Assembly: GCA_947165945.1 (NCBI GenBank)
Contig: CAMVCF010000003.1
Span: 1-56,195 of the forward strand
DNA: 56,195 nucleotides
From: an uncultured Clostridia bacterium
GTDB lineage: Bacteria > Bacillota_I > Bacilli_A > RF39 > UBA660
Reading direction: 5' to 3'
Made by a program: the position numbers and the translations under genes
The notes under the pieces: model-generated
Seen by the model: only the letters and a program-made list of their open reading frames with translations
Databases searched by the model: none
Told to the model about the DNA's origin: nothing
Shown here: positions 36,117 through 40,912 of the stretch, piece by piece
Position numbering within the stretch: the stretch's first letter is position 1
Layout: each line of letters opens with the position of its first letter

Positions 36117-36145
36117 AAGAAAGTCATAAGACTTTCTTTTTTTTT
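36116..36145. terminator. bidirectional terminator between ponA and rbgA
   Basis: AAAGAAAGTC-ATAA-GACTTTCTTT plus T tract. Confidence 0.8.
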
Positions 36146-37022
36146 AATCAAACGTAATACCTTTAATTCTTCCTTCTTTTAAATCATTGATAATAATTGT
36201 ATAAACTTTATCATAATCAATCAAATTACCTTGCTTTATTGAACTAGTGTTTTCAGCAATACATTTAAATATTTTTTCTAAATCAAATTCAATATTTTCA
36301 TCTAATTTATATCTATTTATTAAAATATTTTTATAATTATTATATAAATATGTAATAATATAGGAAGCAATTTCTTCTTTATCTAAAATATCTTCATTAA
36401 TTGATGCAAAACTTGCTAAATTAAGGCCTACTTCTTTTGCTTCAATCTTAGGGTATAAAATACCGGGTGTATCCATAAGTTCTATTGTATTTCCTACTCT
36501 AATCCAACTAATTCCTTTAGTAACACCAGCTCGATTTCCTGTTTTTAAACCATTCTTTCCACTTATTCTATTTATCAAAGTACTCTTTCCAACATTTGGT
36601 GCTCCAATAACTATTGCTCGATAAGTTCTTGGTTTAAGCCCCTTCTTTATTCTAGAATCATTAATATCTTTTAATAAATTATTAGTTTTATTAACAAGAT
36701 CATTTATTTCTTTTTTAGAAATATCTTTTAAGTTTAATATTACAACTATATATTTATTTTTTAAATCTTCTAATATTTTATTAGTTTTTTCTTTATCACA
36801 AAGATCATACTTTGTAACTATTATTATTCTTTTTTTATCTTTCACTAATAAATCCAAATCAATTATTTTAGAAGATATTGGCATTCTTGCATCTAATACT
36901 TCATAGACAATATCAATTAAAGATAATTTTTCTTTTATTTCTCTTTTTGTTTTAGCCATGTGTCCAGGATACCAGCTGATATTGGTTTTGTCTAGCCCAG
37001 CATTTCCATTTGTATTACTCAT
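36144..37022 (-). CDS. rbgA: ribosome biogenesis GTPase RbgA (YlqF)
   Basis: ISWYPGHMAKT, EVLDARMP, GAPNVGKSTLIN, GVTK, DTPGILYP; SD AAGGAG before ATG 37022. Confidence 0.95.
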   Translation of the reverse strand: MSNTNGNAGLDKTNISWYPGHMAKTKREIKEKLSLIDIVYEVLDARMPISSKIIDLDLLVKDKKRIIIVTKYDLCDKEKTNKILEDLKNKYIVVILNLKDISKKEINDLVNKTNNLLKDINDSRIKKGLKPRTYRAIVIGAPNVGKSTLINRISGKNGLKTGNRAGVTKGISWIRVGNTIELMDTPGILYPKIEAKEVGLNLASFASINEDILDKEEIASYIITYLYNNYKNILINRYKLDENIEFDLEKIFKCIAENTSSIKQGNLIDYDKVYTIIINDLKEGRIKGITFD

Positions 37023-37156
37023 AAGAATCACTCCTTTTTGTAAGAAACTTTACTTATCAATTATATCACAAAATTTCAATTATTTAGATACCTTAATGCA
37101 TCTTCAAGAATATTTTAATATTTAAATATTATTCAACATAAACATAAATAATTTAC

Positions 37157-37192
37157 AAAAAAACAGCTGTTTTTTTATTTAACAAGCTGTTT
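37157..37192 (-). terminator. terminator after cassette D gene
   Basis: AAACAGCT...AGCTGTTT inverted repeat with A tract. Confidence 0.65.
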
Positions 37193-37790: not shown

Positions 37791-37815
37791 AAAAAATCAG
37801 ATAGCAACTATCTGA
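37791..37815 (-). terminator. intrinsic terminator inside the cassette D arm
   Basis: TCAGATAG-TTG-CTATCTGA-TTTTTT on minus. Confidence 0.75.
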
Positions 37816-38009
37816 CAAATTTATATAAAAACACTCTTTTTTCTAAAAGTTAGACCGTCAATACCACCCTTTTTAAATATCGCTATTTTTGGATGATTTT
37901 TACCGAATTTTATCAAATTTTAGTTTTTTTTTACTTTTTTTAATAAAAAAATGTAATAAGTAAACATTCATTTTCCCTTGATTTTATAAGGTTTTATAAA
38001 AATGTTTGA

Positions 38010-38069
38010 CTAAATCCATACCAAACAGTTTATATGAGTTTTATTTTCATTCATTTGAATTACCTCCTC
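38010..38069 (-). pseudogene. orphan rbgA 5' stub (MNENKTHINCLVWI*) / att-like junction between cassettes C and D
   Basis: AGGAGG-TAATTCAA-ATG AAT GAA AAT AAA ACT CAT ATA AAC TGT TTG, versus rbgA AAA ACC AAT ATC AGC TGG TAT. Confidence 0.75.
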
Positions 38070-38590
38070 TTAGTTAATAATTTTTCCTTTGTTTTACTTA
38101 AATATTCTTTTCTTTTTTCTAATTTATCTGGATGATGTGCAAGTGCATCACATCTTTGTATTTCATAAAGTTTCAAACATAATTCATAATTATTCTCAAT
38201 TTGTTCACTACTAATTGGTGTATCATGGTTTTCAATTAAATAACATATTAAATTAATATATTCTTCATTATAACCTAACCTATGTAATATTTCCTCCGAC
38301 ATTTTTGCTGATACCATAGGATGATTTTTAAAATGTCTAATTTCTTCATCTTGATATGAAAAAGGTTTACCAATATCATGAAGTAATAAACACAATCTTA
38401 TATCAAAATCTTTTTCTGATAAGGTAAGAGCTAATAACGTATGATTCCATACATCTAAATGATGATGAGGATGTCTGTGTTCAAATCCAATCATATTTTC
38501 TATTTCTGGAATTAGTTTCAATAAATAATCTATATTTTCATTAATAGATTCTACAATATTCTCTGATAATAAAATTGATTGCAAATCCAT
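38060..38590 (-). CDS. HD-domain phosphohydrolase (resembles the HD domain of CCA-adding enzymes; cassette C cargo)
   Basis: HHHLDVWNHT, LLLHDIGKP, HPMVSA, IENHD, CDALAH; SD GAGG before ATG 38590. Confidence 0.8.
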   Translation of the reverse strand: MDLQSILLSENIVESINENIDYLLKLIPEIENMIGFEHRHPHHHLDVWNHTLLALTLSEKDFDIRLCLLLHDIGKPFSYQDEEIRHFKNHPMVSAKMSEEILHRLGYNEEYINLICYLIENHDTPISSEQIENNYELCLKLYEIQRCDALAHHPDKLEKRKEYLSKTKEKLLTKRR

Positions 38591-38769
38591 GTCTATTACC
38601 TCGACTTTCTTATTATTAGGTGGCGTAATCACCTTACTAATTCCTCCACTATTTTGCATTAAAAATAGTCATTTAATTTTTGTCTGTTTTATCATATTTT
38701 TATGTTAAACATGCTAGATGTTCACTCTCACAATCCCTTATTTTCCCTAGGGTTTCTCCTATTCTTGGA

Positions 38770-38827
38770 TAAATCGTAATCAACCAGTTTATATTAGTTT
38801 TATTTTCATTCATTTGGATTACCTCCC
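38770..38827 (-). pseudogene. orphan rbgA 5' stub (MNENKTNINWLITIY...) / junction between cassettes B and C
   Basis: GGGAGG-TAATCCAA-ATG AAT GAA AAT AAA ACT AAT ATA AAC TGG TTG; ATG at 38813. Confidence 0.8.
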
Positions 38828-39814
38828 TATCTTTATTTCATTATCATCTTGTTTAGTTTTATTAACCACTAATTGTTCCAATGAAAAATAATTTAAATCT
38901 TTTGTATCAATTGATTCATTAACGCAAAAATTATTATAAAGCAATGACTTACCAGATACAATAATATCAAATATGTAATCATGCGGATTATTATATATAC
39001 AATTTAACATTGCCTTTTGCATTGTCATTTCATCAAACAATCTTTTAGTTGGAATTGCTATAACCATAGGTTTTGTATCTTTGAATTTATTCCAATATTT
39101 ATTAAAGAAAGATAATACTTCATTACCTTCATTTTTAGATAAATCATAATATTTTATTAATGAATTCACACATTCAAGTGCATCATTATAATTCTTAGTG
39201 GAATAACCCTTTTCTTTATGATAGTTAACTAATTGATGATATACAGAGGCTTCACCACAGAACAATCTAAACCATTCAGGTCCATTACTATAATTCATAA
39301 TTTGTAATGGATCAGAGTTGCAAAATATACCAGTATAATCATGATTAAAATCATTAATTACAAATTGAAATGGATTTACTTTATCATACTTGCTAAACAA
39401 TTGATTCATAACTAAAATATCATTTTTTTCTTCATTATCTTCTTTCTTCACAAAACCATTTTTAATTAGTTCATCGCCATATAAACTATTAGTAGAATGA
39501 AAAATATAACCATTAATATAAAAATTTAAATAAGCATACTTCTCTATTTCACCAATTCTTGATTGTATATTCCCTTTGCTAATATTCATAATTGAGGCAA
39601 TTCTATTTATTATGAATTCTTTTTTGTTATCAGAGTGAATATATTCAATTATTCCATCATTGTTTTTAAATAATATGCAGTAATTAATTATTTGAGCAAT
39701 CAAAACAGATTTCTCATGACGCTCATCAAAAGATGCATCATAATCAAATTGACACATTTCTTGAATCTCACTACTACTTAAAGTATTCTCAACTAAATTA
39801 CCAAATTCATTCAT
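38819..39814 (-). CDS. hypothetical protein (cassette B cargo), possible ADP-ribosyltransferase-like fold
   Basis: SD GAGGTG before ATG 39814; YIFHSTNSLYGDELIKNG resembles the ART/PARP first strand (xHGT...I..nG); weak. Confidence 0.6.
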   Translation of the reverse strand: MNEFGNLVENTLSSSEIQEMCQFDYDASFDERHEKSVLIAQIINYCILFKNNDGIIEYIHSDNKKEFIINRIASIMNISKGNIQSRIGEIEKYAYLNFYINGYIFHSTNSLYGDELIKNGFVKKEDNEEKNDILVMNQLFSKYDKVNPFQFVINDFNHDYTGIFCNSDPLQIMNYSNGPEWFRLFCGEASVYHQLVNYHKEKGYSTKNYNDALECVNSLIKYYDLSKNEGNEVLSFFNKYWNKFKDTKPMVIAIPTKRLFDEMTMQKAMLNCIYNNPHDYIFDIIVSGKSLLYNNFCVNESIDTKDLNYFSLEQLVVNKTKQDDNEIKIGR

Positions 39815-39989
39815 ACATTTCACCTCGTTTTATTAAAAGTTAGACTCCTGTCACCACTCCCTAAATACTATGGTATTTTTGGAGTTCTTTTATCTATTTT
39901 TTATACTTTTTAGTAATTATTTATTAAAAAATGTAATTACTATATATTAACTTTTTTCTTATTTTATAAGAGTTTCATGAATAGTTAGA

Positions 39990-40049
39990 CTAAATTGTCA
40001 TCAACCAATTGATATTAGTTTTATTTTCATTTATTTGGATCAACTCCTT
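39990..40049 (-). pseudogene. orphan rbgA 5' stub with start codon decayed to ATA / junction between cassettes A and B
   Basis: AAGGAG-TTGATCCAA-ATA AAT GAA AAT AAA ACT AAT ATC AAT TGG TTG ATG ACA ATT TAG. Confidence 0.75.
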
Positions 40050-40056
40050 TTATTTA

Positions 40057-40620
40057 TTAAAATTTTAATATATTTTTTGCTGATTCATATTGTACTTTAA
40101 CAAGCACTTTACCCTTATCAGACATCTTATTATAACTTCTATCTAATTTATCCATAACAAATTTACTTCCATCATCTATAGATAGGCCTTTTTCTTTATA
40201 AACCATACTTAAAAGCGATGGAATACTATAAAAATGTGCCATAGCATCAGAATCAGCTACACATATTTCTTCAGGTGATGTTTTATCAGCTAACCTGCTT
40301 CCACGATGGTTTAAAATACATTTTTTAATTAATTCTATTTTATCAGTTGGATAACATTCAGCAAGTAAAAGTTGTTCTGCTATATCTGCACCTATAATAT
40401 GATGCTCTTCAGTAAAACTTACATCTGTTACACTAGCAATGTCATGAAGAAGAGCTGCTATTGCAACTATTTCTAAATCTGCACCATATTCACTAGCATA
40501 TTTTTTTGCTAGTTCATAAACTATTTTTATGTGATGGTCCCATGCTCCTATCCCATATGCATTTGTAGGTTGTTCACATCTATTTTTAACTTCATTATAC
40601 ATTTTATCTTCAATTGTCAT
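40057..40620 (-). CDS. HD-domain phosphohydrolase (cassette A cargo)
   Basis: HHIKIV, ALLHDIA, EHHIIGA, ILNHRG, VADSDAMAH; SD AGGAG. Confidence 0.85.
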   Translation of the reverse strand: MTIEDKMYNEVKNRCEQPTNAYGIGAWDHHIKIVYELAKKYASEYGADLEIVAIAALLHDIASVTDVSFTEEHHIIGADIAEQLLLAECYPTDKIELIKKCILNHRGSRLADKTSPEEICVADSDAMAHFYSIPSLLSMVYKEKGLSIDDGSKFVMDKLDRSYNKMSDKGKVLVKVQYESAKNILKF

Positions 40621-40843
40621 ATTATTTCTCCTGCTCTAATTGTTTAACCATCAATACCAAGTATCAAATATAATTTATTTTTATATAAAGTATGCCTCAA
40701 AACAATTGTCGGCATATTACAAGCCAGTACCCTAATTCCTCTCAAAAATGAGTATATTTTAACCTATTTTTTCAAATTTTTCCTTCTTTTTTATTAAAAC
40801 TTGCAAGATCTAATTTGCTAAAAAGTCCAATTTTACAAGAGTT

Positions 40844-40912
40844 TTATTGATATACGGCATAAATACAAGCCAACCAATTAATTATTTTATCATCATTCAT
40901 TTTTTCACCTCA
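40844..40912 (-). pseudogene. orphan rbgA 5' stub right after lepB (MNDDKIINWLACIYAVYQ*), probably the ancestral start
   Basis: GAGGTG-AAAAA-ATG AAT GAT GAT AAA ATA ATT AAT TGG TTG; ATG at 40900. Confidence 0.7.

Follow-up and report, generated by a model that had tools for sequence, protein, structure and literature searches.

Why should a small gene cassette carry its own left end twice, in the same sense and about 150 nt apart, and why should the two copies change together from one cassette to the next? The question arises at rbgA, the gene of the 50S ribosome-binding GTPase, on contig CAMVCF010000003.1 of an uncultured Clostridia bacterium (assembly GCA_947165945.1), of which positions 1 to 56,195 were analysed (hereafter, the window). 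The minus strand carries, in this order, rplS, lepB, four one-gene units (A–D) and rbgA, and each unit is headed by a ribosome-binding site (RBS) and a pseudo-start, MN(E/D)(N/D)K..INWL, here called the stub, which resembles the real RbgA start ..DKTNISWYPGHMAK in translation. Directly after the stub stands a junction block, composed of TG, a hexamer, a spacer and a second block (block 2), and a similar distal block closes the segment that we call the arm. The initial annotation had taken this pair to be a specificity code. We find that the repeat and its covariation are real, and we tentatively favour a different explanation, in which the left end of the cassette would be duplicated around a removable arm and the repeats would be recombination handles rather than a code that is read. 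The blocks of the four cassettes are as follows.

40853–40872, minus strand: cassette A junction block, TG-GCTTGT-ATTTA-TGCCGTA (direct reading and shuffle test).
40708–40726, minus strand: cassette A distal block, TG-GCTTGT-AATA-TGCCGAC (own score 13/15, reached in 0/5000 shuffles).
40003–39983, minus strand: cassette B junction block, TG-ATGACA-ATTTA-GTCTAACT (direct reading and shuffle test).
39838–39856, minus strand: cassette B distal block, TG-GTGACA-GGA-GTCTAACT (14/15, reached in 0/5000 shuffles), 12 nt ahead of the cargo B RBS GAGGTG.
38782–38760, minus strand: cassette C junction block, TG-ATTACG-ATTTA-TCCAAGAATA (direct reading and shuffle test).
38611–38631, minus strand: cassette C distal block, TG-ATTACG-CCA-CCTAATAATA (12/15, reached in 43/5000 shuffles).
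38023–38004, minus strand: cassette D junction block, TG-GTATGG-ATTTA-GTCAAAC (direct reading and shuffle test).
37849–37866, minus strand: cassette D distal block, TG-GTATTG-ACG-GTCTAAC (13/15, reached in 1/5000 shuffles).
40642–40659, minus strand: relic distal-type block in cassette A, TG-GTATTG-ATG-GTTAAAC, preceded by ATTTGATACT and fitting the GTATTG/GTTAAAC distal consensus.

Direct reading of the minus strand reproduced all eight sequences and coordinates first annotated, together with the offsets of 146, 147, 151 and 157 bp in A–D. The hexamer is nearly identical within a cassette (6, 5, 6 and 5 of 6 positions), the distal spacer is always shorter (4, 3, 3 and 3 nt vs. 5 nt at the junction), and the shuffle counts listed above, from 5000 shuffles per arm, answer the concern that such matches are AT-rich chance. 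In a 4 × 4 cross matrix of the window arms, each junction block scored highest with its own arm, with one tie (the D query in arm A, cross score 13), which is due to the relic block. This relic (40642–40670, minus strand) is the 3′ stump, the last ~30 nt, of a GTATTG-type arm, placed between the GCTTGT-type distal block of cassette A and the cargo RBS, and shows that arms can be stacked or replaced. A stump behind the distal block is also seen in genome G171 (L040/L097, from about 3659) and at locus L114. The junction/distal pair of cassette C recurs in other genomes.

The repeat is not confined to the window. Within the same family, 38 of 201 genomes contain the junction motif, frequently with several copies on a contig. 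It is also present in at least 119 stretches of species-representative genomes, all of them uncultured rumen or gut metagenome-assembled genomes (MAGs) labelled Bacilli, Erysipelotrichaceae, Tenericutes or similar, and in 120 metagenome stretches. From the relatives, 265 unique junction-plus-arm sequences were assembled, 216 of which fit a single profile over its whole length (nhmmer) and come from more than 100 MAGs. Many of these arms are close relatives, so that raw counts overstate independence; with this in mind, an own score of at least 12/15 is reached in 147/265 arms vs. 6 after shuffling, and one of at least 13/15 in 111/265 vs. 2. The offsets in this set are sharply bimodal, at 145–147 and 155–158, and the distal spacer measures 3 nt (80 arms) or 4 nt (60 arms). 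When the distal site was located from its conserved left flank, with the blocks themselves unused, own pairs matched at 10.5/13 vs. 7.0/13 for cross pairs (0/2000 permutations), and the difference held with one representative for each of 21 arm-interior clusters (10.57 vs. 7.53 of 13, 0/5000 permutations). Among independent metagenome contigs, a score of at least 12 was found in 51/109 vs. 2/109. In the arm alignment, the strongest mutual information at long range links junction to distal columns ~155 nt apart and is of the identity type. The repeat extends over TG, the hexamer (6 nt) and about 10 nt of block 2, where positions b8–b10, not used for locating the site, match at 0.58–0.63 vs. 0.35, and the left flanks of the two copies are unrelated. 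Thus, the larger alignment, with at least 15 types, bears out the covariation of junction and distal blocks, which means that some coupling between them exists. The idea that the distal left flank is a decayed rbgA stub was discarded, as nhmmer gave no similarity, the same as for a reversed control. Outside the arrays, AAAATACATATATTCTGGTTGTTTACAATTTA recurs once per genome and matches the junction pattern only with 2 mismatches (G048:C7:47889, G040:C8:23738, G030:C5:33537, G069:C10:3886, G151:C11:2745 and G196:C1:393127); it is probably an unrelated conserved gene segment.

At least 15–19 junction/distal block combinations were distinguished, among them the following (hexamer/block 2).

Junction ATTACG/TTTAACC with distal ATTACA/TTTAACC.
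Junction ATTACG/TAGTAAC with distal ATTACG/CAGTAAC.
Junction A(T/G)AACA/GTCAAGACC with distal AGAAC(G/A)/GTCAAGACC.
Junction GCTTGT/TG(G/A)CGAC with distal GCTTGT/TGCCGAC.
Junction ATATTG/GTCTA(A/G)C with distal GTATTG/GTTAAAC.
Junction ATGACA/GTCTAAC with distal GTGA(CA/TT)/GTCTAAC.
Further types: ATACCG.., ACATCA.., GTAAC(A/G).. and others.

The proposal that the hexamer is a cassette-specific barcode therefore stands in one respect and fails in another: the hexamer does covary in pairs, but it is not free, the majority of hexamers being RTWACR variants, beside GCTTGT-like and ATATTG-like groups. Mismatches between the copies are fixed in lineages, e.g., TGACGAC vs. TGCCGAC and AGAACA vs. 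AGAACG, and one common and widespread type shares only block 2, with the junction hexamer AGCATG vs. the distal ATGTTT; as many as 8 close relatives of arms of this AGCATG type are found at other loci. A single arm type stands before many cargos and a single cargo is combined with several arm types, different arm types coexist within single arrays, and the same cargo at 92–99% identity can stand behind different arm types, with the break at the RBS.

The arm is, moreover, optional. The offsets of open reading frame (ORF) starts are bimodal, at about 20–60 nt and about 180–200 nt, and 52/302 cassettes (17%), present in many arrays, are arm-less. The same cargo occurs with and without an arm at nucleotide identities of 99.3% (L119 vs. 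L215), 98.9% (L221 vs. L055), 98.1% (L197 vs. L034) and 97.6% (L158 vs. L063). In four arm types the arm-less leader consists of junction sequence through the longest stretch shared by the junction and distal copies and of distal sequence thereafter, the shared stretches at the joints being TAGTCAAGACCA (type 10), TTTAACCCCTT (type 1), TTAAGAACA (type 3) and TGGCTTGTA (type 9). Because the hybrid switches to distal sequence at TGGCTTGTA, the arm-less form of type 9 keeps the distal spacer AATA right after the stub, consistent with the spacer AATAT in 5 arm-less cassettes. Such hybrid joints appear to be the signature of recombination, or of replication slippage, between short direct repeats. 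The distance from the distal block to the cargo RBS equals that from the junction block to the RBS in arm-less cassettes.

What the removable part may contribute is suggested by its interior, of which cassette A provides an example, and by what follows the distal block.

40727–40852, minus strand: cassette A arm interior with motifs CTCTTGTAAAA.., GATCTTGCAAGTTTTAAT and GGTTAAAATATACT, homologous to 216 arms (nhmmer), putatively promoter-like.
37796–37816, minus strand: terminator-like hairpin and T-run, 33 nt after distal block D.

All arm interiors are homologous. Common to them are CCTTATAAAATAAGG, which is short and hairpin-like, the conserved ATCTTGCATGTTTTA.. with a TGnTAAAAT-like element behind it, and, 7–9 nt ahead of the distal TG, a conserved GGAATT(A/G), for which the types GTATTG and GTGACA have GTATTT. 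Behind the distal block, AAAGAGGTGA and a cargo start follow within 50 nt in at least 117/182 arms, so that the arm looks like a promoter plus leader, and the inner copy lies 10–30 nt before the cargo RBS. The arm insert is probably a promoter, judging by its position and by the conserved TTGCA.. and TGnTAAAAT-type motifs. A terminator stands behind the distal block in 9/182 arms, including that of cassette D, and the cargo then has promoter-like signals of its own, in cargo D (37723–37175, minus strand) TTGTAT..TATAAT.

The position of the junction block can be fixed by comparison with rbgA itself, for which two further features are needed.

40871–40900, minus strand: first rbgA-type stub after lepB, ATG AAT GAT GAT AAA ATA ATT AAT TGG TTG, with the crossover after TGGT.
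36144–37031, minus strand: rbgA, 50S ribosome-binding GTPase (Pfam MMR_HSR1; translation), the array anchor, with the attachment point between TGGT and ATCC at 36974.

In an alignment of rbgA starts from 18 relatives, functional rbgA is exactly the stub up to TGGT, followed by ATCCAGG, whereas cassettes continue after the TGGT of the stub with TG-hexamer-ATTTA.. instead. Throughout the window and the 18 relatives, stub and real rbgA are thus identical until TGGT and then part (TG.. vs. AT..), which sets the limits of a cassette from the TG after TGGT to the TGGT of the next stub. The first stub after lepB (MNDDKIINW) is non-standard, as is the working rbgA of the window (36974–37175, minus strand), which does not have the common MNENKTNINW stub; its longer start, MSNTNGNAGLDKTNISW, sits behind its own terminator and promoter-like region.

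The same target and crossover are known from integrative and conjugative elements of the Tn5253/Tn5252 type in streptococci and enterococci, which insert after the ..TGGT(T) of the Trp-Phe/Tyr codons. The attachment site of Tn5253 in rbgA has an experimentally defined end just after ..TGGTT, in the first 17–20 nt of the coding sequence, and its insertion restores rbgA by duplication (PMC8571831). As in the arrays described here, such an element restores rbgA by bringing along a copy of the gene's first codons and of the region upstream of them (PMC8571831, PMC4701971). Since the crossover of the cassettes matches this position, the block sits where the cassette-side half-site should be, and we infer that it may both contribute the cassette's half of the attachment site and begin the cargo leader. 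Its bipartite layout of 20–25 bp fits the half-site of large serine recombinases (PMC3783163). The streptococcal elements that insert at the 5′ end of rbgA use tyrosine integrases (PMC4701971). Unlike them, the cassettes are 0.3–4 kb units, mostly single-gene and integrase-less, stacked in arrays, with no tyrosine integrase near 169 loci, and neither report describes a repeated left-end block or a removable arm for the Tn5253/Tn5252-type elements (PMC8571831, PMC4701971).

In our preferred explanation, the block would be the cassette's own left-terminal ~25 bp, to the right of the crossover between TGGT and TG, and present twice. The outer copy would stand at the recombination joint beside the rbgA stub and the inner copy would head the cargo leader, with an optional insert of ~125–135 nt with conserved promoter-like motifs between them, so that an armed cassette would consist of outer copy, insert and inner copy, and then leader, cargo and stub. 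Recombination between the same-sense copies would remove the insert and leave a single hybrid block at the joint, and the arm-less cassette would presumably rely on read-through from upstream. Armed and arm-less forms would interconvert on a short evolutionary time, and the likeness of the two copies would be that of paralogues of one functional end, usable at either position, arm exchange working only between copies of the same type. That arm-less forms arose by deletion, rather than armed forms by insertion, is the direction that we consider probable. The equal distance of either block to the RBS, the optional arm, its presence and absence before nearly identical cargos, the hybrid joints, the modularity of arms and cargos, the stump of a second arm type in cassette A and the position of the crossover speak for this explanation, and rival couplings, i.e., a third complement, an inverted partner and a conserved RNA structure, were ruled out.

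Several points weigh against it. Descent and deletion alone leave at least 15 parallel junction/distal types over homologous interiors unaccounted for; parallel divergence needs selection for similarity or a copying step, and every reading confined to DNA faces this problem. A search for young, perfect duplications gave none: the longest exact repeat measures 13 nt, and ATTTA is not the spacer of any distal copy. The distal spacer is systematically 1–2 nt shorter and richer in G+C than ATTTA, suggesting a constraint of its own. A simple promoter scan gave no enrichment at the arm. Arms with a poor match do not occur less often in relatives than matched arms, which gives no hint of selection for or against the match; the notion that mismatched arms are evolutionary dead ends was accordingly dropped, as they do not differ from matched arms. 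A miniature inverted-repeat or other transposon with target-site duplication was likewise rejected, given the 13-nt longest exact repeat, the missing distal ATTTA and the unpaired insert ends (a stem closing the insert was sought, and no pairing of its ends was supported).

Integron cassettes are comparable in several respects, as they too form single-gene arrays at one site and carry cassette-specific paired, covarying sequences (attC), and some of their units supply promoters, including ORF-less promoter cassettes (PMC6557892). However, the attC pairs are inverted and hairpin-forming, whereas the pair described here is direct, same-sense and ~150 nt apart, with no inverted partner; a search for an attC-like partner at the cassette 3′ end found no cassette-specific complementarity. 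Unlike integrons, the arrays have no IntI-type recombinase beside them, and the cassettes restore the start of an essential gene.

Among the alternatives, the best survivor, though still unlikely, is that the block is a cis-acting mRNA leader element (for stability, processing or translation) just upstream of the RBS, the distal copy being the working one when the cassette is armed and the junction copy the same element, used at the joint by arm-less cassettes. This would fit the constant distance from block to RBS in armed and arm-less cassettes, the G+C enrichment of the distal spacer, and the observation that the distal copy is at least as conserved as the junction copy within arm lineages, the junction copy being the more variable in the GCTTGT type. 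Some types also have a hairpin at the distal flank (z −1.9 to −3.0 in 4/16 types), and columns 173/188 covary locally. However, no structure is common to all types, the distal block shows no type-specific complementarity to the downstream leader, and the similarity of the outer copy in armed cassettes, ~150 nt from any RBS, is left unaccounted for. A transcription attenuator with 1:2/2:3 pairing was considered and set aside, as there is no third segment complementary to both same-sense copies.

A code read by proteins, in which the junction and distal copies would be core-proximal and accessory sites for a type-specific recombinase or directionality factor supplied in trans, seems to us improbable. 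Terminal and subterminal direct copies of a motif ~150 bp apart are the classic layout of multi-site transposon ends and att arms: in Mu (L1–L3), Tn7 (TnsB sites) and TnpI elements (DR1/DR2), an end motif has further direct copies tens to 150 bp in from the end. There, each element's own enzyme reads the repeats, which are uniform across an element family, whereas many block types coexist here without cognate enzymes. In size and bipartite form the block also resembles a serine-integrase half-site, i.e., a bipartite ~25-bp block (20–25 bp) at the crossover with an outer 7–10-bp motif at about position 15–24, the place of the zinc-ribbon motif (PMC3783163). Half-sites of attP and attB carry the same motifs at different spacing (PMC3783163); however, the shift in spacing here amounts to 1–2 bp instead of 5, and the distal copy lacks a partner half-site, a stub-like left half and a crossover context. 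Clear dyad symmetry between the junction block and the stub is also missing, and variation among the blocks far exceeds what is usual for the sites of a single enzyme. A dif-like (Xer) joint was discarded in turn, since no inner dyad symmetry was visible by eye.

The enzymes that such a code would need were sought in the family and near the arrays. Large serine recombinases are numerous and diverse, occurring in 166/201 genomes with up to 20 per genome, so near-ubiquitous (PF07508) that they do not discriminate, and short ones (~412 aa, with resolvase, recombinase and zinc-ribbon domains) occur in or beside arrays, as cargo, at 13/169 loci. Such loci include L034:5779–7017, L132, L130, L093, L025, L171 and L170, and at L025 this gene is the first ORF behind an arm. 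However, the cognate recombinase or directionality factor that the initial annotation envisaged for each arm did not emerge: the cassettes encode none, one arm type goes with many cargos and one cargo with different arm types, and no recombinase gene is consistently linked to the arrays or travels with the cassettes. With 28 ORFs from the surroundings of tyrosine-recombinase matches in relatives as queries, tblastn found no tyrosine recombinase near the 169 array loci apart from one chance Xer-like match. The window's genome, which bears the array and is 67% complete, contains no serine recombinase, nor do G043, G113 and G021. Without any serine recombinase domain, G043, G113, G021 and G000 have arrays of up to 5 junctions. 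Arrays thus persist where no serine recombinase is present and, as in G113 and G162, where the only tyrosine recombinases are two Xer-like ones each; they are either moved there by visiting elements or host functions, or static. Furthermore, at least 15–19 types would require as many enzyme specificities with one invariant stub half-site for all, several types are mixed in single arrays, and a hexamer mismatch is tolerated in a widespread type.

Very unlikely, in our judgement, is an RNA guide, in which the distal copy, once transcribed, would pair with the bottom strand of the junction block and so direct a recombinase acting in trans to the outer end of the cassette; the transcript would start from the promoter-like element of the arm and end up in the cargo leader or, where a terminator follows, in a short RNA. 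Among direct mechanisms it alone predicts that two distant sites covary with the same sequence, and it would suit cassettes without a recombinase of their own, the place of the distal block downstream of conserved promoter-like motifs, and the terminator after the distal block in 9/182 arms, including cassette D, which would give a stand-alone transcript. The parallel is with the bridge (seek) RNAs of IS110/IS1111 elements, in which a non-coding region near one end matches the element's own end, and an IS110-family gene does stand beside one array. This gene, for a DEDD transposase of ~405 aa, is at G171:C24:13954–14424 (within L040), ~1 kb past the last detected junction, in a genome with five matches to the IS110 family; its placement is reminiscent of those IS1111 elements whose targets are integron attC sites. 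Unlike IS110/IS1111, the arms have no conserved fold, the blocks are same-sense and in tandem, and no DEDD recombinase is found in the cassettes or in most host genomes: PF01548 (IS110) is absent from 8/14 array-bearing genomes, the window's own among them.

The search for RNA structure speaks against a guide as well. An Rfam search of the array gave no match at E ≤ 1, the RNAalifold consensus energy of 107 arms was 0, and no stacked covarying helices were found in 193 arms. Folding of 16 distal regions revealed no common structure, and in most types the regions fold no better than shuffles. Neither was there a third complementary partner, as the junction block pairs with its own interior as with other interiors (both −7.59 kcal/mol), and the distal block shows only a marginal pairing difference for its own interior. 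In addition, the lineage-fixed mismatches amount to 2–3 in 13 positions, many of them not wobble-compatible, the AGCATG/ATGTTT type has unrelated hexamers, and the 52/302 cassettes without an arm nevertheless occur in many arrays. With no conserved RNA fold, linked enzyme or partner, therefore, neither a cognate enzyme per type nor the bridge-RNA-like guide of the initial annotation is supported. A loosely structured guide, in which the inner copy, in the leader or a short RNA, would enable recognition of the cassette's own outer end by a host or visiting recombinase, is at least as improbable; if true, each integrase-less cassette would carry its own address label, and the arrays at rbgA would be an RNA-programmed cassette platform. 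Finally, chance or a phylogenetic artefact in AT-rich DNA (G+C of the window, 25%; many arms closely related) can be practically dismissed, being rejected by shuffles, cross-pairing and permutation even at one representative per arm lineage, by replication in independent metagenome contigs, and by the junction-to-distal signal at ~155 nt that tops the long-range mutual information.

The remaining features of the four cassettes, each of which carries one unrelated cargo gene, are listed below.

40057–40620, minus strand: cargo A, HD-domain protein (Pfam PF01966, E 6.8e-13).
39983–40050, minus strand: stub B and junction block, with RBS AAAGGAGTTGATCC.. and a decayed ATG (junction block 40003–39983).
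38819–39814, minus strand: cargo B, ~331 aa, no family match, likely start ATG 39814.
38760–38828, minus strand: stub C and junction block, with RBS and ATGAATGAAAATAAAACTAATATAAACTGGTTG (junction block 38782–38760).
38060–38590, minus strand: cargo C, HD-domain protein (Pfam PF01966), likely start ATG 38590 behind GAGGT.
38004–38069, minus strand: stub D and junction block (junction block 38023–38004).

Two starts differ from the mechanical ORF calls. For cargo B the listed ORF begins at a GTG inside the RBS, and ATG 39814 is most likely the real start. For cargo C the call (38060–38659) begins at an ATG within the arm and crosses the distal block, whereas homologues in other arrays start at the Met equivalent to 38590. 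Recurrent cargos elsewhere are RhuM-family, HD-domain, GNAT-like, ASCH and P-loop kinase-like proteins. Some arrays are very long: one contig of MAG SIG197 (L063/L069, SVAH01000001) bears at least 14 junctions, and RGIG8845 (L101/L116) has many contigs full of junctions. Cargo ORFs are 92–100% nucleotide-identical across genomes of different genera and arms are at least 80–95% conserved within one type, which together point to recent horizontal spread of the cassettes.

Integron-like cassette arrays at the start of rbgA are thus widespread in uncultured gut and rumen Bacilli, and we found no published description of them. The repeat fixes the cassette boundaries for annotation and suggests a building rule, in which the left-end block is present once (promoter-less) or twice (with a promoter-like arm of its own), the two states interconverting. 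It also suggests a simple genetic route from a self-expressed to a silent captured gene, a matter of the cost and expression of cassettes that is central to integron biology.

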